From positions 1 through 35,794 of the IMG/VR virus record IMGVR_UViG_3300032335_000196: a stretch of 35,794 nt of DNA. One strand, written 5' to 3'. Each line of letters opens with the position of its first letter. Positions within the stretch are counted from its first letter, which is position 1. Positions 14,624-33,263 of this stretch are shown piece after piece. The notes beneath the pieces are model-generated. The model worked only from the letters and a program-made list of their open reading frames with translations. It was not told where the DNA came from and made no database searches. The DNA comes from a virus. Lineage: Duplodnaviria > Caudoviricetes. The translations under genes were made by a program, and so were the position numbers.

Positions 14624-16450
14624 ATGAACATTATTAAAATTCAAGATCAATTAAAAAATGCACCAGATGATGCATTAGTTGGTTATGTTCAAAACCCTAC
14701 AGGCCATGTACCAACCTATTTAGCGTTAAGTGAATTACAACGCAGAAAAGAAATGCGAGATTCATACCAAGCTAACAAACCTGAAGAAAAAACTGTAGCT
14801 GAAGATCTAGTTCAAGAGGCTCAACCTCAACCACAAATGGAAGGTTTAGCAGGGTTACCTGAAGCTCAACCTATGATGGAAGCTATGGCTCCTCCTCCAG
14901 AAATGCCGATGCAACAAATGGCACAAGGTGGTTTAGCTGAACTAGATGTAGGTGATATGTTTGATGAAGCTAACTATGCACAGGGTGGTATTGTTGCATT
15001 CGCTGATGGTGGTGATACAGAAAAAGGTATGAACTTAGACAATATGTCTTCACTTGATTCAAATACAGAAGGTGGTGAAGGAGCTACTCCTTTAGATAGA
15101 GAAGCTTTTTTAAATTTATTACTATCCCAAGGAAATACAGGAAGTTCTATGAATTTAAATAGTATGCCAGCACTTAATGTAAATACAGGAAGTAGTGGGT
15201 CAGATTTTCCTTTAGATAGACTTGTAGGAGGTCGTCCTGGAGCTTTTATGGATGCAGTACTACGAGCATCAGGTCAACAACAAGGTCAAGGCATGGCACA
15301 AGGCGGCGAAGTTAAACGCTTTGCAGGTCTTGATGGTTCTTATGTTAACCCAGAATTATATGGTAGACCAACTAATCAATCATTTTTAGACAAACTTAGG
15401 TTTGGTTTTTCAAGTCCAGATGAAATAAGAAAATCTAATATGGGCGAAGGCATGCCACAAAATCCATTTATGGGATATATGCCAGATGCTAATAGAGATC
15501 CGATGACTATCCAAGCTCAAATAGGTGAACTCTATAAACAATTAAATATTCCTGGTGTAGATAAAACTGCAATATATCAACAAATTAATGAGTTAGAAGG
15601 ACGTAATAAACGCCCATATGACATGGGTGGATACCAACTAACTAAAGAAGATTTAGCTCCGCCTAAACCACCTAAACCACAAGATCAAAACAAAGGTAAA
15701 GGTGCAGGTCCTAACCCATTTGATGCTATGATGTCTAAAGAAAAATCTTTAAAAGAACTAAGTGATGAATATATGGGTATTCTTGGTGAAGATAAAGGTG
15801 CTAAAAGATTATCTGAAAGATTAGCTAAGATGGATGAAAAAGCTGCTAAACAAGAAGAACAAGCGCCGTGGTTAGCATTAGCTAAAGCTGGTTTTGAAAT
15901 GGCTAATACTCGTGCAGAATACGGTAAAGCTGCTGAAACTCCATTTGCATCTCTTGCTCGAGGTGCTGGTGCAGGTATTAAAGATTATGCTGAGTCTAAA
16001 GAAGCACTTAATAAACTTGAAGAAAAACGTTTCCTCCTTGATAATGAATTATCTAAACAATCTCGTGCGGAACAAGTTGCAGCTCTCAATTACGGCAAAG
16101 ATAGTAAGCAACATACAGAACAAATGAATAAAACAATTCAGTTAGCTAAAATGAAAGATAATACTGAAAGAGAACTTGCCAACTTAGAAAATAATACTAA
16201 ACTTATTACCGCTATGCAAAAAGGTAATTGGGATAAAAAAGATTATTTCAAAGCTTATAATGAAGTTGCAGAAAGTGACGCATTCAAACAAGCTGAAAAA
16301 AATTATATAAATGAAAAAGGTTCTTGGGTAGTAGGCAGCCCAAAATATAATCAATGGAAAGATCTTACGATTAAACAACTTATTAGACAATCAGAAAGTG
16401 CCTCTGGAGCCCCTGCAGACGCGTGGACAAACTTCCAAAAATCTAACTAA
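14624..16450 (+). CDS. Putative ejection protein
   Basis: AAGGA RBS. VP.YLALSEL.RR N-terminal domain, repeated [MYF]AxGG motifs, ALAKAGFEMA..F..LARGA amphipathic helices and a charged coiled coil. Confidence 0.6.
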   Translation: MNIIKIQDQLKNAPDDALVGYVQNPTGHVPTYLALSELQRRKEMRDSYQANKPEEKTVAEDLVQEAQPQPQMEGLAGLPEAQPMMEAMAPPPEMPMQQMAQGGLAELDVGDMFDEANYAQGGIVAFADGGDTEKGMNLDNMSSLDSNTEGGEGATPLDREAFLNLLLSQGNTGSSMNLNSMPALNVNTGSSGSDFPLDRLVGGRPGAFMDAVLRASGQQQGQGMAQGGEVKRFAGLDGSYVNPELYGRPTNQSFLDKLRFGFSSPDEIRKSNMGEGMPQNPFMGYMPDANRDPMTIQAQIGELYKQLNIPGVDKTAIYQQINELEGRNKRPYDMGGYQLTKEDLAPPKPPKPQDQNKGKGAGPNPFDAMMSKEKSLKELSDEYMGILGEDKGAKRLSERLAKMDEKAAKQEEQAPWLALAKAGFEMANTRAEYGKAAETPFASLARGAGAGIKDYAESKEALNKLEEKRFLLDNELSKQSRAEQVAALNYGKDSKQHTEQMNKTIQLAKMKDNTERELANLENNTKLITAMQKGNWDKKDYFKAYNEVAESDAFKQAEKNYINEKGSWVVGSPKYNQWKDLTIKQLIRQSESASGAPADAWTNFQKSN

Positions 16451-19400
16451 TGGCTACATACAGTATTCAAGGACCAGATGGTAAAACCTACACCATAGAT
16501 GGACCAGATGGCGCTTCAAAAGAAGAAGTTGTCGCAGCCATACAACGTAAATCTATAGAAGCTTCTACGCCTCGTGATTACACATTAGGTGAAATTGTAG
16601 GTAAAGGATTTACTCGAGGCACTAAACAAATAGGTTCTGCTTTAGGTGATGTATTACCTGCTATGTTAGGTAGTGCGGTGGGTGCTGATGAATATGCTAA
16701 GCGTCAAATGGAAGAAGCTGCGGCTACTCAAGAAGAAATTGCTCTTAGATATGCACCTCAATATGGATCTACCAAAGACATACAGGGTGTAGGTGATGCT
16801 CTTAAATATGCATTAGAAGCTGTTTCAGAACAAGGTCCTAACATTGCTACATCCCTTATTCCTGGTGTTGGCGGTGCTGGTGTAGCGGGTGCTTTAGCTA
16901 GACGTGGTGTTGTTAGCGCTGCTGAAACAGCGGCTAAAGAAGCGGGAGAGGCTGCATTAACTGCAGGAGCTAAGCAAGCTTTATTAAAAGAATCTGCTGC
17001 TGATATTGCTAAAAAGCAAGCTATGGGTATGAATCTTGGTGTTTATCTTGGCTCATTCTCTCAAAACACTCCTGAAGTATTTCAAAATATTTATAACCAA
17101 ACTGGTGAATTAGCTCCCGGTGCGGCGCTCCTTGCAGGCTCAGTAAGTTCTGCGCTTGATTCTGCTCTACCTGCTTTTATACTTAAAAAGATTACTGGTC
17201 CTGCTAAGGTTGGACTAATAGAAAAAATACTTGAAGACTCAGGTATGCAAAAAGGTATTATCCGTAAGGCTGTATCAGCGCTTCCTGAAGCTGCGGCTAT
17301 GGAAGGTTTAACTGAAGGTACTCAAGAAGCCATCAGTATGGCAGCAGAACAATTTATATCTCAGAATAAAGACGTATTTAACTCAGAGGGTTGGAATCGT
17401 ATTATTGAGAGTGCGATTAAAGGTGCGGTTGTAGGCGGAGTATTCGGTGGTACATCAGGTGCTATTGAAGGAGCTAAAGATAAATTCACTAAGCCTATTA
17501 CGCCTAGCACCCAAGAGCCGACACCTGGTACTGAACCTGCTCCAACTGATTTACCTCCTATTACCCCGTTATCGCCTAGTGATGTCACTATTAACAAAGC
17601 CCTATTCGTTGACGAAGACCTCATAAATACACTTGGTTTACCTAAAAACGCTGGTATAGTTAAACGTATTAAAGACCTCGAAATCAACGAAGATAATGCC
17701 ACAGTTATTAAAGCTGAACTTAGTAAGTATCAAGGTGATGACGTAGTAAAAGAAAACATAAACAAATTATTTGATAGACCAGAATTTCAAGGAGTTCAAA
17801 TTGGACAACAACCTAGAGGAACTACTGCCACAGGACTTGGAGATGATATTTCAGTATCTAATGGATCCACTAAGAAGGCCCCTGCCGGTAAGGTTGCAGA
17901 CGTTGACGGAGCTGGAGTTACTGGGGCTGGAGTTGATGCTACAGAACTTAATGCAAGAGTTGAGGGAAGCGAAGCAGCTGAAACAAATACATTAACTAAG
18001 TCAGCTCTAGATCTACTCAAATCAGTAGCAGAAGGTGGTGTACCTGCGATGATGACTAACAACCTACGTAAAATTGCGATAGATAACGGCATTAAAGACA
18101 TCACACCTGCATGGACACCTAACCAAGTTATTGAAGCACTACAAACTAAATTAGCCGCAGCACCTGCCGCACCAACAATTAAAATCAATAAAGCTCCTGA
18201 AGTTCTTAAACAAGAACCTGAACTAACCCCAGAAGAAATCACTGCGGCAAACGCACCTAAAAAACAAACTAAATATGACTACTCAGGTATAACTCCGTTA
18301 TTAGATCGAGCTCTCAAAGAAGGTATTATCTCAAATGAGAACTATCAACAAGCTCAGAAGATGATGGAGAATGATACATTTAGTCCTCTTGAAATTGCCG
18401 CACAACTAGAGAATGCACAAAAACAAAGAGAAGCTGGTGTAACAGGTACAGGTAAAAAAGTATTACCTCCTGACCAACAAAAAGTAGCTAATGCTTGGAA
18501 TAACTTTAGTAAGCGAGTTAAGTTTGATGAATTAGTTGACCAAGATCAAGCTGTGATTACAGACGCGTTTAACAATGGAAAACTTGATAGAGACTTAGTA
18601 GACGAAATTATTCAAGATAGTGGATACTATGACTACTCTAAAAAAGATGTGAGCCGTGATATGAGTATTGTTAATACTATGGAAGAGCATGTAGATATTC
18701 ACGATGCAGTTAAAGGTTCAAAAACATTAGGCCAAGCATTAAAGAACGTTTTAGATAAGCATTCTGATATGTTATTACCTGCACAATCTAAGTTAATCAA
18801 TCGATTACTCAATGTTAGAAAAGCAGTTAATGCTAAGTTTAACCATAGCCCAACTAAATCTTCACCTCTAACTACTGACGATAGAATAGCAGTAGGTCAC
18901 TATACTCAAAACGCTCACGAAGTTACTCTATGGCAAGAAGGTGGACTAAAGACACTACTCCATGAAGCAGTGCATGCAGCTGCAATAACAGAGATGTATA
19001 ACCATATTGTTAAATCAGCTAAACGTAGTGGCAATAACTATATTAAAGATGCTAGAGGTAGATTGATATGGGAGCATAAGGTTAAAAATAATAGCCCTAT
19101 TGGTAAACAACTTTTTGCTATATTTAACGCAGCGAAAGAAGCAGCAGCAAAAGAAAAAAGAGAATACTATGGACTCACTAATATAGATGAGTTTATTGCT
19201 GAGACATTCTCAGATCCTATGTTCCAACTATTTTTAACAAGACAACCAAGTGTTTCTAATAAACCAGGTTCTAACTTATTACAAGACTTCTTAAACGCTG
19301 TAAGAGAAATGTTAGGCGTACCAGCAAGTCAAAAAACTATGTTTGATGATGTGGTTAATCTATCACCAACTTTATTTAAAGGTAAGCAAAACGTATTAGA

Positions 19401-22233
19401 TAAAGCAATAGATGCATTGTCAGGTACAGAATATAACATGGTATATAGAGGTGGTGTTGATCCAACTGGCGCTAGAAATATACTTAGTTCTATTGGTCAA
19501 ACAGTTAAAGATTTGCCTGCATATAATTCAACCATTGTTAAAGAGGTACGTAATGCAACCTCTCTACTACCAGATAATATGAAAGCATTAGCTTTATCCT
19601 TTATGTCATTACCTCAAAAAGTAGATTTATTTGCAGATAGATTACCTGTATTACGAGACATACTTAAAATACTTGAAGTACGTGGTCATAGAGTTGAAGA
19701 GCTTCATAAAGAAGTAGAAGACATGACGTTTCAAGGTATCAACACACTTCAAGAAATGACCAAGAAGTATGGCCCACAAGTTGTTGATAAGTTTAATAAA
19801 ATTGGCTCAGAGTTATCTGCTAGAAAAATTGATCCTAGATTAACAGAATCACAACAAACTAACTGGGATGAAAAACTTATTAGAGCTTGGAAAAACCTGC
19901 CAGAAGAATTAACAAGCGATAAAATCATAGGTCAAAAAACAGTTTCAAGAATAGTTGATGGCGTTGAAGTTAAAGTTAAATTGCCTGTGCGTAAAGGTTT
20001 AGCATACCAAATAGCAGATAGATATGAAGAATATCGTCATCAAATTATAGATAATGTTGAAAGAGTTGCTGGTGGTAATATGGCCGCTGATCTTCGTAAA
20101 CGCTTTGAGAAAAATAAAATATCATTCTACTTACCATTAAGACGTAAAGGTAACTATCGTTTAGCTTACTTTGATAAATTTGGTAAAGAAAGAACTATTG
20201 AGCATTTTGAAACGCCTGCTGAATTAGAAAGAGCTAAAGAAAAAGCTGATAAAGCTGGAGCTACTAAGATCCAAACATCATTAATAACTAGACAAGTTAA
20301 TTATAAAGAAACACCGCCATTAGGTTTTGTTAAAGAAATTATTGATACCCTAGATAAGAGCATAGAATCTTCACCAGAAAAAGATGACCTTATTAATGAG
20401 ATATATAGTATGTATCTAAACTTATTCCCTGATGAATCTATTCGCCAACAAATGCAAGAGCGTCAAGGTATTCCAGGTTATATTGAAGATATTGTAGGTG
20501 GCTTTGCTGACACTGGCTCACGCCTATCTTTACAACTATCTAACTTAGAATATAAACCTCAACTTGATACTGCATTTAAAACATTAGATCAACAACAAAG
20601 AGAGTTTATTGATAAGCATGGTGATTTAAAAGAAAATGCCATGATATCTCAAGTGGTACAGGACATGAATGGACAAAGAAAGTTTATTGAAAACCCTGTA
20701 GCTGATTCGATATCTGCTCAATTAAGCTGGGTAAGTTATATCTGGAACATTGCAGGTAATGTATCTTCAGCTATTATCAACTTAACACAGGTTCCTATGG
20801 TAGTTATGCCTATGTTAGGCGGAGAATATACATGGAATGAAGCTTATGATGCATTAAGTACTGCTTATAAAATGTATTTCAAAGGCGGTTTATTCAACGA
20901 TAATAATAGAAACTTCTTACCTGATCATACCTTTGGCGCTAACTTAAAACCAGGTGATAAACACTATAAACTCTATCATGCTGCGCTAGGTCGTTCTACT
21001 ATACGTCGTGGTATTGGTTACGAACTTAATGAGTTAAGACAAAAATCAGCAGAAGATTTTACCGGAACTAAAGCTAAGATTTATACTAGCCTAGGTTGGA
21101 TATTCCAAAACTCTGAACGTATGAATAGAGAAGTAACTCTGATTGCTGCATATGACCTAGCTTTAAAAAAGAATGGTGGTAACGTAGACGCTGCGATTGA
21201 AAAAGCTATTGAAACAACTACCCGTGCACACTCTCATGCATTATCAGAAGCTGGTCCTAAAATGTTCCAAAATGGTATAGGTAAGGTAGCATTTACTTTC
21301 AAACGCTTTGCCCAAGCACAGATTTATAATATGGCTAGATTATTCTATGTAGCTACACGAGACATGCCAACTAAAGAACGTGAAATTGCACGTAAACAAT
21401 TTTTAGGTATTTTAGGCATGACGTATGTATTCTCAGGTCTACAAGGCTTACCAGTTTATGGTGGACTTAATATGTTGTCTTCAGCTATTGCAGGTATGTT
21501 TGGTGATGACGATGAACCATATGACTTTGATGAAGAAGTCCGTGAGATTTTTGGTGAAATTGGATACAAAGGCCCACTCAATAAACTTTTAAATATTGAT
21601 ATAGCAGCGAGAACAGGTTTCAATGGTATGGTATTCCACGACGATCCACGTCGTTTAGCTGAGGTTGGATTCGGTCCATACTTCATAGAACACTTCTTTG
21701 GCCCTGCATATCAAACATTAGCAGTTAATCCTACACGTGCTGCTAAATTATTTGATGAAGGCCAGACTGAAAGAGCAATTGAAACCTTGGTGCCATCAGC
21801 ACTTAAAAACATAATGAAAGGTTTTAGATTTGCAACTGAAGGTGCAACTACAACTAATGGTATTAAAATAATTGATGACCCTAATGCATATAATAACTTA
21901 CTACAGATATTTGGTTTCACTAATGCAGATTTGTCAGAAGCTTATACTCGTGCAAGCTCATTGAAAAAATATGAAAAACATATAATGGATCGCAGAACTC
22001 ATTTATTAGATACATATTACCTAGCTAAATCAAACGGTGATACAGAAATGATGAGTAAAATCAGAGATGATATGCGTACCTATAGTTCTAAAGTACCAGT
22101 AGGTATTAAGATTACTAGTGATACTATTTCAAGATCTGTTAGAGGTCACAAAGAAAGAGAAAAACAAGCTAGAGATGGCGTTGTTATTAGTAAGAAACTA
22201 AAGAATCAAGCCGTAGAAGAAGCAGGAGCTTAG
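16450..22233 (+). CDS. Large polyvalent ejection protein with zincin-like metallopeptidase motif
   Basis: 1927 aa. N-terminal GPDGK.Y...GP.GA, Ala/Gly-rich membrane-active region (EG.TEG.QE), TLLHEAVHA at 18952-18978 with downstream DEFIAE, and a helical C-terminal region (N.SSA.INLTQ, F.FK.F). Confidence 0.72.
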   Translation: MATYSIQGPDGKTYTIDGPDGASKEEVVAAIQRKSIEASTPRDYTLGEIVGKGFTRGTKQIGSALGDVLPAMLGSAVGADEYAKRQMEEAAATQEEIALRYAPQYGSTKDIQGVGDALKYALEAVSEQGPNIATSLIPGVGGAGVAGALARRGVVSAAETAAKEAGEAALTAGAKQALLKESAADIAKKQAMGMNLGVYLGSFSQNTPEVFQNIYNQTGELAPGAALLAGSVSSALDSALPAFILKKITGPAKVGLIEKILEDSGMQKGIIRKAVSALPEAAAMEGLTEGTQEAISMAAEQFISQNKDVFNSEGWNRIIESAIKGAVVGGVFGGTSGAIEGAKDKFTKPITPSTQEPTPGTEPAPTDLPPITPLSPSDVTINKALFVDEDLINTLGLPKNAGIVKRIKDLEINEDNATVIKAELSKYQGDDVVKENINKLFDRPEFQGVQIGQQPRGTTATGLGDDISVSNGSTKKAPAGKVADVDGAGVTGAGVDATELNARVEGSEAAETNTLTKSALDLLKSVAEGGVPAMMTNNLRKIAIDNGIKDITPAWTPNQVIEALQTKLAAAPAAPTIKINKAPEVLKQEPELTPEEITAANAPKKQTKYDYSGITPLLDRALKEGIISNENYQQAQKMMENDTFSPLEIAAQLENAQKQREAGVTGTGKKVLPPDQQKVANAWNNFSKRVKFDELVDQDQAVITDAFNNGKLDRDLVDEIIQDSGYYDYSKKDVSRDMSIVNTMEEHVDIHDAVKGSKTLGQALKNVLDKHSDMLLPAQSKLINRLLNVRKAVNAKFNHSPTKSSPLTTDDRIAVGHYTQNAHEVTLWQEGGLKTLLHEAVHAAAITEMYNHIVKSAKRSGNNYIKDARGRLIWEHKVKNNSPIGKQLFAIFNAAKEAAAKEKREYYGLTNIDEFIAETFSDPMFQLFLTRQPSVSNKPGSNLLQDFLNAVREMLGVPASQKTMFDDVVNLSPTLFKGKQNVLDKAIDALSGTEYNMVYRGGVDPTGARNILSSIGQTVKDLPAYNSTIVKEVRNATSLLPDNMKALALSFMSLPQKVDLFADRLPVLRDILKILEVRGHRVEELHKEVEDMTFQGINTLQEMTKKYGPQVVDKFNKIGSELSARKIDPRLTESQQTNWDEKLIRAWKNLPEELTSDKIIGQKTVSRIVDGVEVKVKLPVRKGLAYQIADRYEEYRHQIIDNVERVAGGNMAADLRKRFEKNKISFYLPLRRKGNYRLAYFDKFGKERTIEHFETPAELERAKEKADKAGATKIQTSLITRQVNYKETPPLGFVKEIIDTLDKSIESSPEKDDLINEIYSMYLNLFPDESIRQQMQERQGIPGYIEDIVGGFADTGSRLSLQLSNLEYKPQLDTAFKTLDQQQREFIDKHGDLKENAMISQVVQDMNGQRKFIENPVADSISAQLSWVSYIWNIAGNVSSAIINLTQVPMVVMPMLGGEYTWNEAYDALSTAYKMYFKGGLFNDNNRNFLPDHTFGANLKPGDKHYKLYHAALGRSTIRRGIGYELNELRQKSAEDFTGTKAKIYTSLGWIFQNSERMNREVTLIAAYDLALKKNGGNVDAAIEKAIETTTRAHSHALSEAGPKMFQNGIGKVAFTFKRFAQAQIYNMARLFYVATRDMPTKEREIARKQFLGILGMTYVFSGLQGLPVYGGLNMLSSAIAGMFGDDDEPYDFDEEVREIFGEIGYKGPLNKLLNIDIAARTGFNGMVFHDDPRRLAEVGFGPYFIEHFFGPAYQTLAVNPTRAAKLFDEGQTERAIETLVPSALKNIMKGFRFATEGATTTNGIKIIDDPNAYNNLLQIFGFTNADLSEAYTRASSLKKYEKHIMDRRTHLLDTYYLAKSNGDTEMMSKIRDDMRTYSSKVPVGIKITSDTISRSVRGHKEREKQARDGVVISKKLKNQAVEEAGA

Positions 22234-25279: not shown

Positions 25280-25377
25280 ATTGCATTCGCTTTCTATATT
25301 TTTAGACAACACTACCCCGCCACAATAAATTGTGTTTTTTGAAATTTACTACGGGGTATTCCTATTCTACTACTTTT

Positions 25378-30388: not shown

Positions 30389-30881
30389 GTTCTTTTACCT
30401 CATTAACTAATTCTTCAAATGATAACGCATCTAAGTCTTCTTCAAACTCAATACTTAATATGTATCTTGTTGTTTCAAAATTATATACTGTGTGGTTTAC
30501 TTGTGTATTAAATAAATAATAGGTCATAGGTTTGTATTTAAGTTCTTCTATATCAAATACCATGCCATGTTTATCGGGAGCAAATGCACATATACTCCTA
30601 TTAAAAGGGGTCAACAACATATTGATACCCACACCTCGCCTAGTATCAGTGTGCCAATCGTAACAAACATATGGATCTAATTTAAGAATGCCTGCTATAA
30701 AATTATGCTTTGTTAGTAACCATGCAAAAAATCTATCCTTAAATAGAAGATCAGGTGGTACTAGTTTAGCTTTAAAATTATAGTAATCCATCCATTCGCT
30801 AGGTTGCATAGCAAAGTCTAACAACTCAGATGATATTGTAGATTTTCTTTCTACTTCATAGTAACAATCAGCAGTCGCCAT
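30366..30881 (-). CDS. 2OG-Fe(II) oxygenase-like (double-stranded beta-helix) protein
   Basis: L.P...YDWHTD (HxD), INMLL, LFNTQVNHTVYN (distal His) and RYILS (RxxxS). GGAG 6 nt before ATG at 30881. Confidence 0.65.
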   Translation of the reverse strand: MATADCYYEVERKSTISSELLDFAMQPSEWMDYYNFKAKLVPPDLLFKDRFFAWLLTKHNFIAGILKLDPYVCYDWHTDTRRGVGINMLLTPFNRSICAFAPDKHGMVFDIEELKYKPMTYYLFNTQVNHTVYNFETTRYILSIEFEEDLDALSFEELVNEVKEHEKNSTK

Positions 30882-32733
30882 AACTTTCTCCATAATGTGC
30901 TTCACAAGCGACGGGTAGCCCACTCGCCCAACCAGGAGGCGTTGACATAATGTCTACGATGAAGTCATTAGCTAACTTGACTTCGGGTGTTGGAACTACG
31001 CAGACTACCGCATCGTGAACAGTTAACACAGGACGATACTTCTTACTTACTTCTAACATCTGCTCACCTACAATAATACGGGCAAGCGCTTGAACTACAT
31101 TCTCTACTACTGATCCACCCCATATAGATACCATACCTCTACGGGATTTATAAACAAATTTAGATTTAGCTTCTGAGACATCCCATGTAAGTCCGGGATA
31201 CTGAATATATAATCCGTTGGGTAGTTTAATACCTCTTGGTGTAACAAGTAATGATTCATTACCTAAGTAATAGGGTTGTTTATCTTTAGGCCATGATGCC
31301 ATGTCTTGTAACGCATCGTCACAATCACTCCATAACTTAATCACTTTATCATTAACTTCGCGGTAAACTCTAACAAGATTCCTACATTCTTGCTCAGTAA
31401 GAATAGCGCCCGGCGGGGACGTCTTTAATGTATGTTGTAGCTTTGCCCACCCTGTACCATAACCTAGACCTAATGTACATGTTTTACCTACGAATCGTTC
31501 TGTCGCATCAGCTTTAGTAATCGGTCTGTTATAAACTTTAGATGCAAACTCTGAGTAAACATCTCGTCCTTCTTTATACCATTGCACAATATCATCTTGT
31601 CCACTCAACCAAACTAATACACGCGCTTCGATCTGTGAAGAGTCACAGTTAATTACTTGATGTCCTTCAGGGGCTACGACTGCGTTCTTGAGTGCTTTCT
31701 TTTTCTTATCTCTGGATGGTAAGTTCTGGAAGTTAACCTTATCTGCTCCCGCCCAACGTCCTGTATGAGCGCCATAATATTTTAACGGAATAGGTAGTTT
31801 ACCTTTGTTACGTGCACCAATACCAATAAACCTTTCAATACGTGCCTCTTCCATGGTTGATTTAGTACCCAACCGCACGCGACAAAGTTCTTGAATAAAT
31901 AAATCTTCGTGTTCAGTCAGTTCAATAAAGCCATTGTCGTTTTTAGCTAAGGCAAACGTAGGGTTGCCCGTCGCAGGACTTGTCTTCATTGGTACTTCTA
32001 CGCCTAACTCGGTTAAGAGTTCTGCAAATTGTTTATTAGATGCAAGCTTAGCCCTAACACATTCTTCTGTGTCACACTCTAATCGCTTCATTAAACCCTG
32101 TAACATTAAAGCTTTTTCTTCTCTTATTTCCTCAACTCTTTCTTGTAGTAATGCATCGTCAACCTCTAAGACAGGTTCGGTATACATGCGTAACGTCATG
32201 TCAATTAGTTTGATTTCATTCTCGGGATATTCTTGAGCTAAGATTTGGAATAGTTTATAGGTAAGTTCAACGTCGTTGATACAATAATTTCCATACTGTA
32301 ATAACTCATCTTCACTAAAATCTTCTAAGCGTTTGCCTTTAGCTTGAACTACTTCTGTACCTTTAGCGCCTAGTTCATATCGTTCGACTAACGATGCAAG
32401 ACTTCCACCGGCATCGATTCCGTGTATTGCCCTAGCCATGCTGAGTGTATCGAGGTAGAGATGTGGAATGACATTAAAACGGAAAGACAATATACCACCA
32501 TCGAACTGAGTATTATGACAAAGAAGCGCGGAGTTCTTCCAATCAATCTTCTCAAATTCATTCTTGATTTCTTGATGTGTGCCTGTAACCCACTTTGTAA
32601 CACCGCTATCAATCTTAATACCAACACCGATGACTTGGAATCTTTCATCTTTAATATACTCCTCCGTTGTAATTCCGGATAAACTAAAACCTACGTCGTA
32701 GTAGGTCTCGAAATCTAGTGTGACTAGTTGCAT
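30868..32733 (-). CDS. polA: DNA polymerase family A with 3'-5' exonuclease domain
   Basis: Exo I DFET, Exo II HN.QFD, Exo III YC..D; HTGRW, N.QNLP; motif A DSSQIEAR, motif B R...KTCTLGLGYG, motif C TVHD. AAGGA RBS. Confidence 0.95.
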   Translation of the reverse strand: MQLVTLDFETYYDVGFSLSGITTEEYIKDERFQVIGVGIKIDSGVTKWVTGTHQEIKNEFEKIDWKNSALLCHNTQFDGGILSFRFNVIPHLYLDTLSMARAIHGIDAGGSLASLVERYELGAKGTEVVQAKGKRLEDFSEDELLQYGNYCINDVELTYKLFQILAQEYPENEIKLIDMTLRMYTEPVLEVDDALLQERVEEIREEKALMLQGLMKRLECDTEECVRAKLASNKQFAELLTELGVEVPMKTSPATGNPTFALAKNDNGFIELTEHEDLFIQELCRVRLGTKSTMEEARIERFIGIGARNKGKLPIPLKYYGAHTGRWAGADKVNFQNLPSRDKKKKALKNAVVAPEGHQVINCDSSQIEARVLVWLSGQDDIVQWYKEGRDVYSEFASKVYNRPITKADATERFVGKTCTLGLGYGTGWAKLQHTLKTSPPGAILTEQECRNLVRVYREVNDKVIKLWSDCDDALQDMASWPKDKQPYYLGNESLLVTPRGIKLPNGLYIQYPGLTWDVSEAKSKFVYKSRRGMVSIWGGSVVENVVQALARIIVGEQMLEVSKKYRPVLTVHDAVVCVVPTPEVKLANDFIVDIMSTPPGWASGLPVACEAHYGESYGDC

Positions 32734-32755
32734 GTATTTTCCTTAATAAATTAAT

Positions 32756-32837
32756 GCTATCTTATGCAAACGGCAGATAGCGGTGCCGTCAATTTACCTA
32801 ACTCTTACTTAAGGAGTTAGACCACTTGCATTGTGGC
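32756..32837 (-). ncRNA. Candidate structured RNA, double-pseudoknot motif, copy A (polymerase-proximal)
   Basis: GCCAC-aAUGCAA-GUGGU; CUAACUC/GAGUUAG; GACGGC; GCUAUCU-[GCCGUUUGCAUa]-AGAUAGC. All pairings are retained in copy B. Confidence 0.7.
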
Positions 32838-32842
32838 GGAGT

Positions 32843-32921
32843 CTACCTTGTGCAAACGACAGGTAATGTGCCGTCCTATAATCCGACTTCGAGGAGGGAA
32901 GTCGCCCACTTGCACTATGGG
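32843..32921 (-). ncRNA. Candidate structured RNA, double-pseudoknot motif, copy B
   Basis: CCCAU-aGUGCAA-GUGGG; CGACUUC/GAAGUCG; GACGGC; UUACCU-[GUCGUUUGCACa]-AGGUAG. Compensatory and G-U changes relative to copy A. Confidence 0.7.
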
Positions 32922-32929
32922 TTGTATGG

Positions 32930-33003
32930 TGAGCTACTCGCGGTTATATAATTGCAAAAATACCATCACGAATTTATACATATAAATAAAGTGCTTTCGC
33001 TCA
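32930..33003 (-). ncRNA. Candidate structured RNA, three-way junction with loop-E-like internal loop
   Basis: UGAGC-GAAA-GC ... GC-GAGUA-GCUCA closes two sub-hairpins (AC..AUUUAUA/UAUAAAU..GU and GGU/ACC). Confidence 0.55.
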
Positions 33004-33008
33004 TTAAC

Positions 33009-33263
33009 TTATTTCTTGTGCCTTTCATGTTCGTTTCTACATTCTACTGAACACCAACGTCTTGTATCTTTTACAAGGTTACTACACCATAAACATTTGC
33101 CTGTATCATTAACTGGTGTTTCTGCCTGTGCATGTGCATTAGCTATTGCTACATCTACAATCTTTTGTGCATATTCATTTGCTACATCTATATCGTCATC
33201 CAAAGTCGCATCTCCGCCAGTCCCTCTGTTAGCTACAGGGTTATGTAATAGTCTGTAATTCAT
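33009..33263 (-). CDS. TraR/DksA-like C4 zinc-finger protein
   Basis: DDIDVA (DxxDxA) helix followed by CLWC...RRWCSVEC. An alternative TTG start at 33203 has GGAG 8 nt upstream. Confidence 0.6.
   Translation of the reverse strand: MNYRLLHNPVANRGTGGDATLDDDIDVANEYAQKIVDVAIANAHAQAETPVNDTGKCLWCSNLVKDTRRWCSVECRNEHERHKK

Follow-up and report, generated by a model that had tools for sequence, protein, structure and literature searches.

Two K units upstream of a phage DNA polymerase gene

The window, that is, the whole stretch of DNA analysed here, is a 35.8-kb phage record without DNA match among cultured phages, whose nearest polymerase reaches 35%. A family A DNA polymerase of 621 aa is encoded on its minus strand at 30868..32733 (PF00476, E 4.7e-30; PF01612), and a DksA/TraR-like zinc-finger ORF on the same strand at 33009..33263 (phrog_54, E 2e-10). 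The gap between them holds, also on the minus strand, two units of a predicted structured RNA, here named K, copy B being the upstream one (32842..32921) and copy A the downstream one (32756..32837); model R1, whose training set includes both copies, scores them at 61.6 bits (E 2.7e-10) and 82.1 bits, respectively. A second predicted structured RNA of ~76 nt, element U, occupies 32927..33002 (minus strand), immediately 3' of the DksA-like ORF, which is given as context only and showed no co-occurrence with K.

Copy A is followed by an AU-rich spacer (32734..32755, minus strand) that includes the polymerase ribosome-binding site (RBS) UUAAGGA (32746-32740), the distance from K to the start codon being 22 nt in the window and 16-35 nt, with 75% A+U, across 42 gene-adjacent copies. 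No promoter-like site was found in 33400-32600, while a canonical promoter precedes the helicase gene of the same phage, so K probably lies inside a polycistronic mRNA. Contigs from two lake metatranscriptome runs of one study cover both copies, with 19 nt in place of U; since one of them stops at 32756 and the other continues through, they are uninformative on RNA ends or transcription.

Predicted fold, covariation and strand

Each K unit is arranged as a 5-bp hairpin P1 with the loop A-RUGCAA (L1), a hairpin P2, the strand CGGC, a 2-3-nt linker, and a hairpin P3 of 6-7 bp that closes a 12-nt loop, L3. Bases 1-4 of L3 pair with CGGC (PK1, 4 bp plus an optional fifth pair that is unpaired in 10 of 46 units), and bases 6-11 with the P1 loop (PK2, 6 bp). 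In copy B (minus strand), P1 is formed by 32921-32917/32909-32905 around L1 (32916-32910), P2 by 32904-32898/32890-32884 around the loop CCUCCUC (32897-32891), the 5' strand of PK1 by 32873-32870, and P3 by 32867-32861/32848-32842 around L3 (32860-32849). The corresponding segments of copy A (minus strand) are 32837-32833/32825-32821 for P1 and 32832-32826 for L1, 32820-32814/32804-32798 for P2, 32788-32785 for the 5' strand of PK1, and 32781-32775/32762-32756 for P3 with L3 at 32774-32763. The 3' half of K is thereby predicted to be a classical H-type pseudoknot, with PK1 (4-5 bp) stacking on the 7-bp P3, and its free loop to kiss the 5' hairpin, tying both ends of the unit together.

The preliminary description, made from the two copies alone, placed two units of one pairing scheme on the minus strand at this site, and this stands: all four helices are present in both, and a structure-only descriptor matches three times in the window (the two K copies plus one chance match), while 25 simulated windows averaged 0.12. 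Its proposal that the 12-nt loop pairs in two ways is correct in that both PK1 and PK2 are found, but the two 6-bp helices then drawn cannot coexist, PK1 having 4 bp and the optional fifth. The segment GACGGCAC, then taken as invariant, varies among homologues and only GGY-AC is fixed, the PK1 partners CGGC/GYCG being replaced by CGGU/ACCG, UGGC/GUCA or AGGC/GUCU. The 7-bp second hairpin does occur in both window copies, yet it is not obligatory, since P2 is missing in L174 and unfolded or barely folded in L033, L082 and L110. Separately, a truncated K before the primase gene of L191 (about 1200-1233) keeps the 3' H-type pseudoknot and has lost P1/L1 and P2, through either a real deletion or an assembly artefact. 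From these variants without P2, the core seems to have a function of its own.

Covariation among homologues was evaluated on 46 distinct true units, obtained with the descriptor from pattern and protein scans and rising to 53 when the primase set was added; 11 of the 22 stretches of the pattern scan were chance matches, and chance loci were dropped from further scans too. In the 46-row alignment, whose rows were chosen for pairing and are related to each other, 98.6% of the cells pair against 93.0% after shuffling, and both-sided changes affect 10 of 23 pairs against 5.0 (0/500 shuffles), distributed as 4/5 in P1, 3/5 in PK1, 1/6 in PK2 and 2/7 in P3. Because of that selection, K was sought again in sets obtained by other routes, with nothing but a P3-like anchor and so without selection on the pseudoknots. 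All four helices were intact in every distinct variant so recovered (13/13 pol-anchored, 15/15 primase-anchored and 18/18 U-anchored), with four PK1 pair types. Covariation is strong for PK1 and weak for PK2, which is almost invariant, so that its support consists of one compensatory pair plus wobbles.

As for the strand, the earlier proposal that base differences in paired positions point to an RNA read from the minus strand is borne out by 66 G-U against 0 A-C combinations among 1012 cells, in a set tilted to this outcome by a descriptor that allowed G-U, and this balance favours the minus strand for K. Nested folding (z -0.89 and -1.88 for the minus-strand units, -3.78 for copy A on the plus strand) does not single out the minus strand, and the strand call thus rests on the G-U versus A-C count. 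The pairs UGCAA/UUGCA are invariant; among unpaired positions, this holds for two only, the A that opens L1 and the one following GGY.

Distribution among freshwater phages

K is known in 53 variants, all from freshwater phages, located without exception between genes and in the orientation of the following one, with 0-2 adjacent copies per site. It precedes the polymerase gene in group A, to which the window belongs, and the primase gene in group B, whose polymerases and primases are 39-40% and 28-29% identical, respectively, to those of the window. One K core sequence is identical in groups A and B, which we read as horizontal transfer between these distant phage groups.

The link to the DNA polymerase gene with which K was introduced applies to both window copies, which precede it, but it is not a specific one: K also stands before primase and in other contexts, and most relatives lack it. 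Among 51 variants with a scored downstream start codon, pol or primase follows in 44, and copies within arrays or before unrelated genes lie 99-444 nt from the next ORF start. K occurs at 20 of 47 pol loci (one truncated locus dropped) and 24 of 80 primase loci; among 66 further pol loci, mostly from more distant relatives, it is present in 3 and absent from 63, and in many relatives the pol gene abuts its predecessor directly, with no structure between. Quick trees of pol and primase each force at least three gains or losses of K. A search of 25 whole records, picked with one of the two sites already known, gave exactly one K match in 10 and none in 15. The idea that each genome carries K at one or other site was discarded, as the 15 records without K include one 100% complete and three 83-86% complete.

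At the HTH-primase slot (n = 80), a plain GC hairpin (29 cases), K (23), U (17), U plus K (1) or none of these (10) alternate, all alleles being followed by a similar AU-rich tail; in 15 group-B variants, K begins -1 to +6 nt from the upstream stop codon. Arrangements seen at the pol slot include U, U-K, U-K-K, U-K-U, U-K-V, U-K-U-K-V-W-X and U-K-U-W-X-K, V, W and X being additional modules that look structured. No partner protein for K was found among 225 clusters (best p 0.036, uncorrected, for 10 records with K against 8 without), and three pattern matches in prokaryote genomes were none of them scored by model R1.

PqqA, the PQQ precursor peptide, is encoded in all four complete K-bearing records searched (G001, G004, G005 and G006; 63-66 kb). 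Together with the assignment of a PqqA-bearing virus to Methylophilaceae (bioRxiv 2020.04.02.019802), this makes a methylotroph the likely host of K phages.

Element U

U is known in 54 variants (for example L011:2411-2487, L158, a short form, and L265:1351-1419). It is closed by a 4-bp stem, GAGC/GCUC in the window and GGGC/GCCC in most variants, and ends in ACCA in 47 of 54, a figure partly set by the search pattern. Its outer stem shows double changes in 2 of 5 pairs; with 3 pairs against 1.7 shuffled (88/500), the signal of U is weaker than that of K. Wherever U and K are both present (36 cases, module X included), U ends 9-12 nt 5' of the L1 loop of K; group-B copies of K are without U. 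By inspection, the GAA/AGUA beside the outer stem is loop-E-like, and U resembles the plain hairpin allele carrying an insert; it occurs at both slots, pol and primase, whether K accompanies it or not. Two other identities considered for U were rejected: as a promoter, because no sigma-70 match occurs there though canonical promoters exist elsewhere in the phage, and as a hammerhead, because CUGAUGA is absent.

The variable arm P2 usually carries an anti-Shine-Dalgarno word

P2 stems are wholly different between families, while the word CUCC recurs in the P2 region of 37 of the 53 variants (5.6+-2.1 after shuffling) and is absent from the other 16. It is found in 13 of 19 P2 clusters (12.2 against 1.5 shuffled when one member per cluster is taken), and is predicted to be unpaired with a mean of 0.82, above 0.5 in 34 of 37. 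Pairing of P2 loops with a canonical Shine-Dalgarno (SD) sequence amounts to -8.4 kcal/mol against -4.6+-0.25 kcal/mol for shuffled loops. CAU stands 3-9 nt 5' of the anti-SD, at start-codon distance, in 10 of 45 (3.3 expected), corresponding to 4 of 19 clusters, and in some P2 families the complementarity to a start region spans SD, spacer, AUG and first codons.

Both window copies share this feature, the most informative one of K, contrary to the statement in the preliminary description that no anti-SD was obvious. Copy B exposes the loop CCUCCUC, and copy A contains an anti-SD segment, CUCCUUAA (32809..32816, minus strand), lying partly within the P2 stem, whose UCCUUAA (32815-32809) complements the polymerase RBS over 7 nt; the CUC of this copy is inside the stem, and the predicted anti-SD/RBS duplex is worth -7.8 kcal/mol against -3.1 kcal/mol for P2. 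Nevertheless, across 45 copies P2 loops show no preference for their own downstream SD (-4.18 against -4.15 kcal/mol with others, p 0.43), which points to action in trans over action in cis. Host-selective silencing by a phage that itself avoids GGAG was considered and rejected, since GGAG is found at 9 of 36 gene starts of the window phage, and a generic anti-SD would not spare the phage itself.

Putative targets of the arm

The start region of a conserved replication-module gene in group B, encoding ~300 aa, has its reverse complement in the P2 loop of L017, with a perfect match of 14-15 nt to 20 of 51 distinct starts of this gene, all of group B. Sister arms in L018 and L185 have 11-12-nt matches to other group-B spacer and codon-2 alleles, while those of L002 and L180 have no match to this gene; the L180 arm matches the first codons of another early gene over 16 nt. 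The probability of at least 15 nt under a conditional null, with the anti-AGGA-NNN-AUG design given, is 0.0006, in a test that is post hoc, as the L017 match was first noticed by eye.

Across all arms, the start-region effect is modest. After exclusion of 45 chance loci, perfect start-region complements of at least 13 nt were found for 4 of 42 arms in antisense and 0 of 42 in sense (2731 starts), and 2 of 42 arms, both of one P2 family, reach p<=0.01. Own-genome starts gave no excess pairing in 11 guide-genome pairs, and no target was significant for either arm of the window (11 nt, p 0.26, and 9 nt, p 0.55). The L017 match could also record capture of sequence and not targeting.

The ~300-aa protein may, on weak grounds, be described as SSB-like, from its operon position and from the ranking of gp32 SSB cores for its structural model (pLDDT 62.8), where they stand second to third at E about 0.06 and nothing reaches E<=0.001. 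It has no Pfam, NCBIfam or PDB-sequence match, and no K was found before the gene in 18 records.

A proposed knotted chassis displaying an antisense arm

The reading that we prefer, with a probability of about 0.4, is that K is an optional, horizontally shared double-pseudoknot RNA chassis displaying a swappable antisense hairpin, P2, which would block the RBSs of target mRNAs. K would be co-transcribed within the early/replication mRNA, host nucleases would release it or trim it at its AU-rich flanks, and the knot would stabilise the released RNA. The C-rich loop would then nucleate pairing, as in C4 or alpha-r14/cuckoo RNAs, and the paired arm would repress translation initiation of the target mRNA. 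Genes of co-infecting related phages, such as the group-B SSB-like gene, might tentatively be counted among the targets, as perhaps might host mRNAs, and tandem copies with different arms, as in the window, might widen the target range. A stronger form, which we consider unlikely, is that K is a reprogrammable cassette for phage-versus-phage warfare, with arms captured from the start regions of rivals and stacked in arrays, silencing replication genes without a dedicated protein.

If the antisense reading is true, lytic-type freshwater phages carry modular scaffold-plus-guide RNAs that need no partner protein and are shuffled among arrays and distant groups. Few RNA mechanisms have been described for competition between co-infecting phages, and the L017 arm with the group-B SSB-like start would be a directly testable guide-target pair for it. 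Under any function, an architecture so well supported and without Rfam match makes K a cheap candidate for the bench, where a new ribozyme or an exonuclease block would each matter, and a 60-nt chassis accepting any hairpin would be a useful RNA display scaffold in bacteria.

Two kinds of known RNA come closest to this mode of action. C4 of phages P1/P7 is a superinfection immunity RNA of three stem-loops, which RNase P releases from a larger transcript by cleavage at a GG motif; its loop b' covers ribosome-binding sites, and specificity comes from loop a' (PMC5320573). K resembles it in being phage-encoded, in a size of about 77-85 nt, in combining a conserved scaffold with a variable loop (PMC5320573), and in the RBS-complementary loop predicted to be unpaired. 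On the contrary, K is predicted as a double pseudoknot with crossing helices and one optional arm, lacks an Rfam C4 match, and gave no sign of a cognate target in its own genome, judging from the 11 guide-genome pairs. The alpha-r14/cuckoo and AbcR sRNAs of Alphaproteobacteria have hypervariable stems and unpaired anti-SD loops that pair with translation-initiation regions, and occur as tandem copies (PMC7143759); the loop of copy B is of that type. They differ in being chromosomal, multi-hairpin, transcribed from their own promoters and without pseudoknot, as presented in that source, while K would display one arm inside a knotted core and has no Rfam match. K would accordingly work most like C4 and alpha-r14/cuckoo or AbcR RNAs, yet its predicted fold places it outside both.

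The absence of a match to known RNA families, which agrees with the preliminary description, was confirmed in Rfam 15, with 0 matches at gathering score in the window and in 14 homologous loci, and unrelated weak ones only at E<=10. No published description of the K motif was found among the papers compared, and a sequence search gave an 11-nt word in unrelated papers only. Fremin et al. 2023 (PMC10690425) report candidate viral structured RNAs directly before phage DNA_pol_A or DUF927 primase genes; the nine of these candidates compared here, by their table rows, are marine or gut, whereas K is freshwater, and K may match another entry of PMC10690425 or PMC5737381 as an orphan motif. A review of phage sRNAs (PMC12197685) lists antisense RNAs in superinfection exclusion, and the word 'pseudoknot' is absent from the portion of its text compared here. 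K is, in summary, a real and apparently uncatalogued structured RNA module with an unexpected scaffold-and-arm design, putatively of the RBS-blocking type of phage RNA, and its fold is without match among known families.

Alternative functions

A role of K in cis as a barrier in mRNA stability or processing, where it would be a tougher stand-in for the plain GC-rich hairpin, stalling 3'-5' exonucleases or shielding a processed 5' end, with the anti-SD as a secondary feature, seems rather unlikely. It would account for the alternation of K, plain hairpin, U or nothing before a similar AU-rich tail at the HTH-primase slot, for the start of K at the upstream stop codon in group B, and for the retention of the core in variants without P2; modules W and X likewise end in a pseudoknot helix. 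It leaves unexplained, however, the unpaired CUCC in 13 of 19 stem families and the 15-16-nt start-region complements, and the many relatives with abutting genes do without any structure before pol. Flaviviral xrRNAs stall a 5'-3' exonuclease by threading the 5' end through the ring of a three-way junction closed with a 3' pseudoknot; K differs from them, by inspection, in its helix order, and has no Rfam match of this kind. The antisense chassis and the cis barrier are compatible, as the knot may be a barrier turned display scaffold.

Control in cis of the translation of the next replication gene, either by a phage protein that the pseudoknot would nucleate on the spacer or as a riboswitch with an SD-sequestering P2 loop, is in our view distinctly unlikely. 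Its model is the T4/T2 gene 32 operator, where two stacked helices form an H-type pseudoknot and unstructured, A+U-rich sequence continues from there to the RBS of a replication gene (PMC3014915); K likewise has a 3' H-type pseudoknot and then its 16-35-nt, 75% A+U spacer. The prevalence of pol or primase as the following gene and the 7-nt pairing of copy A with the pol RBS would also fit. K nonetheless adds a kissing 5' hairpin and P2 to the gene 32 arrangement, is dispensable, and stands before pol, primase or unrelated genes and never before the SSB-like gene (18 records). Neither does P2 covary with the adjacent SD (p 0.43), as would be expected of a translational riboswitch. Such a riboswitch would also be tied to a fixed gene, and K has two unrelated gene contexts plus arrays, with the same core at up to 444 nt from the next ORF start; most relatives are without K, and no promoter-like site lies just 5'.

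The proposal that K represents a new class of small self-cleaving ribozymes cutting the polycistronic mRNA, P2 being a peripheral stem that it can spare, is quite improbable. The compact ~60-nt core with two pseudoknots, the invariant UGCAA/UUGCA pairs and the optional peripheral stem speak for it, and size and two pseudoknots are common to K and the HDV-like, pistol, twister and glmS ribozymes; helix order differs from theirs, and catalytic words are absent. HDV-like ribozymes have a nested P1/P2/P3/P1.1/P4 order with a catalytic C in J4/2, and their descriptor, or topology, was found in 0 of 46 K units. Hammerhead cores, in all permutations, gave 0/46 for CUGAnGA and 2/46 for GAAA, and core words of pistol, twister and glmS 0-1/46 each, again with no Rfam match. 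By inspection, the three-helix crossing pattern of pistol is common to K after circular permutation, and K was considered as a permuted pistol and rejected on the absence of the core words. The two invariant unpaired positions are few for a catalytic core, and the anti-SD loop would be left unexplained. As to context, the size and complexity of K are those quoted for ribozymes in PMC10085705, where bacterial ribozymes are also described as clustering near each other.

Very improbable is the suggestion that K, together with the modules next to it, acts as a tRNA-like or protein-decoy RNA sponging a host defence or translation factor: the acceptor-like 7+5-bp stack ending in ACYA (P3 of 7 bp plus PK1 of 4-5 bp, with an A following P3 in 46 of 53), the ACCA end of U, partly fixed by the pattern, and the multi-module arrays are countered by a K tail that reads ACCA in 9 of 53 only (ACUA in 20), by the absence of any Rfam tRNA or Y RNA match and by the lack of a partner gene. 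Equally improbable is that the 'anti-SD' is the RBS of a plus-strand micro-ORF extending in antisense across P1 and U. Of the 11 mirrored ORFs in variants with CAU, 8 pass through P1 in one frame and give peptides of 27-33 aa, and 26 of 36 U-K spacings are multiples of 3, but most variants, both window copies included, have no mirrored ATG, 3 of the 11 deviate (two in another frame, one stopping after 4 aa), group B lacks U, and variants reading UAU, UGU or CGU still pair with an AUG through G-U, yet would not supply a start codon.

Further modules and neighbouring features

Module arrays before pol were observed in L101 (927-1460, U-K-U-K-V-W-X), L110 (1087-1525, U-K-U-W-X-K) and L016 (2417-2770, U-K-V), without Rfam match. 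W and X are tandem H-type pseudoknots, and the large module of L016 has U-like ends. A third kind of W-X site is seen in L344 (reverse strand, about 1590-2075), where ~410 nt of seemingly structured non-coding sequence, with W-X at its end, follow a pqqA-like ORF and precede one of 331 aa, after which comes an ORF that probably encodes a terminase. In L101, the RNA array and pol are separated by an HNH endonuclease gene (1528-2007), and other accessory ORFs occupy the junction 5' of pol in L099 and L113; that homing helps to move the RNA modules is speculation.

Elsewhere in the window, a 1927-aa protein is encoded on the plus strand at 16450-22233, its C-terminal part matching a DarB-like antirestriction family. 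In the window (25310-25360, minus strand) and in group-A relatives, the HTH-primase spacer is filled by a different conserved long hairpin, whose paired bases vary.
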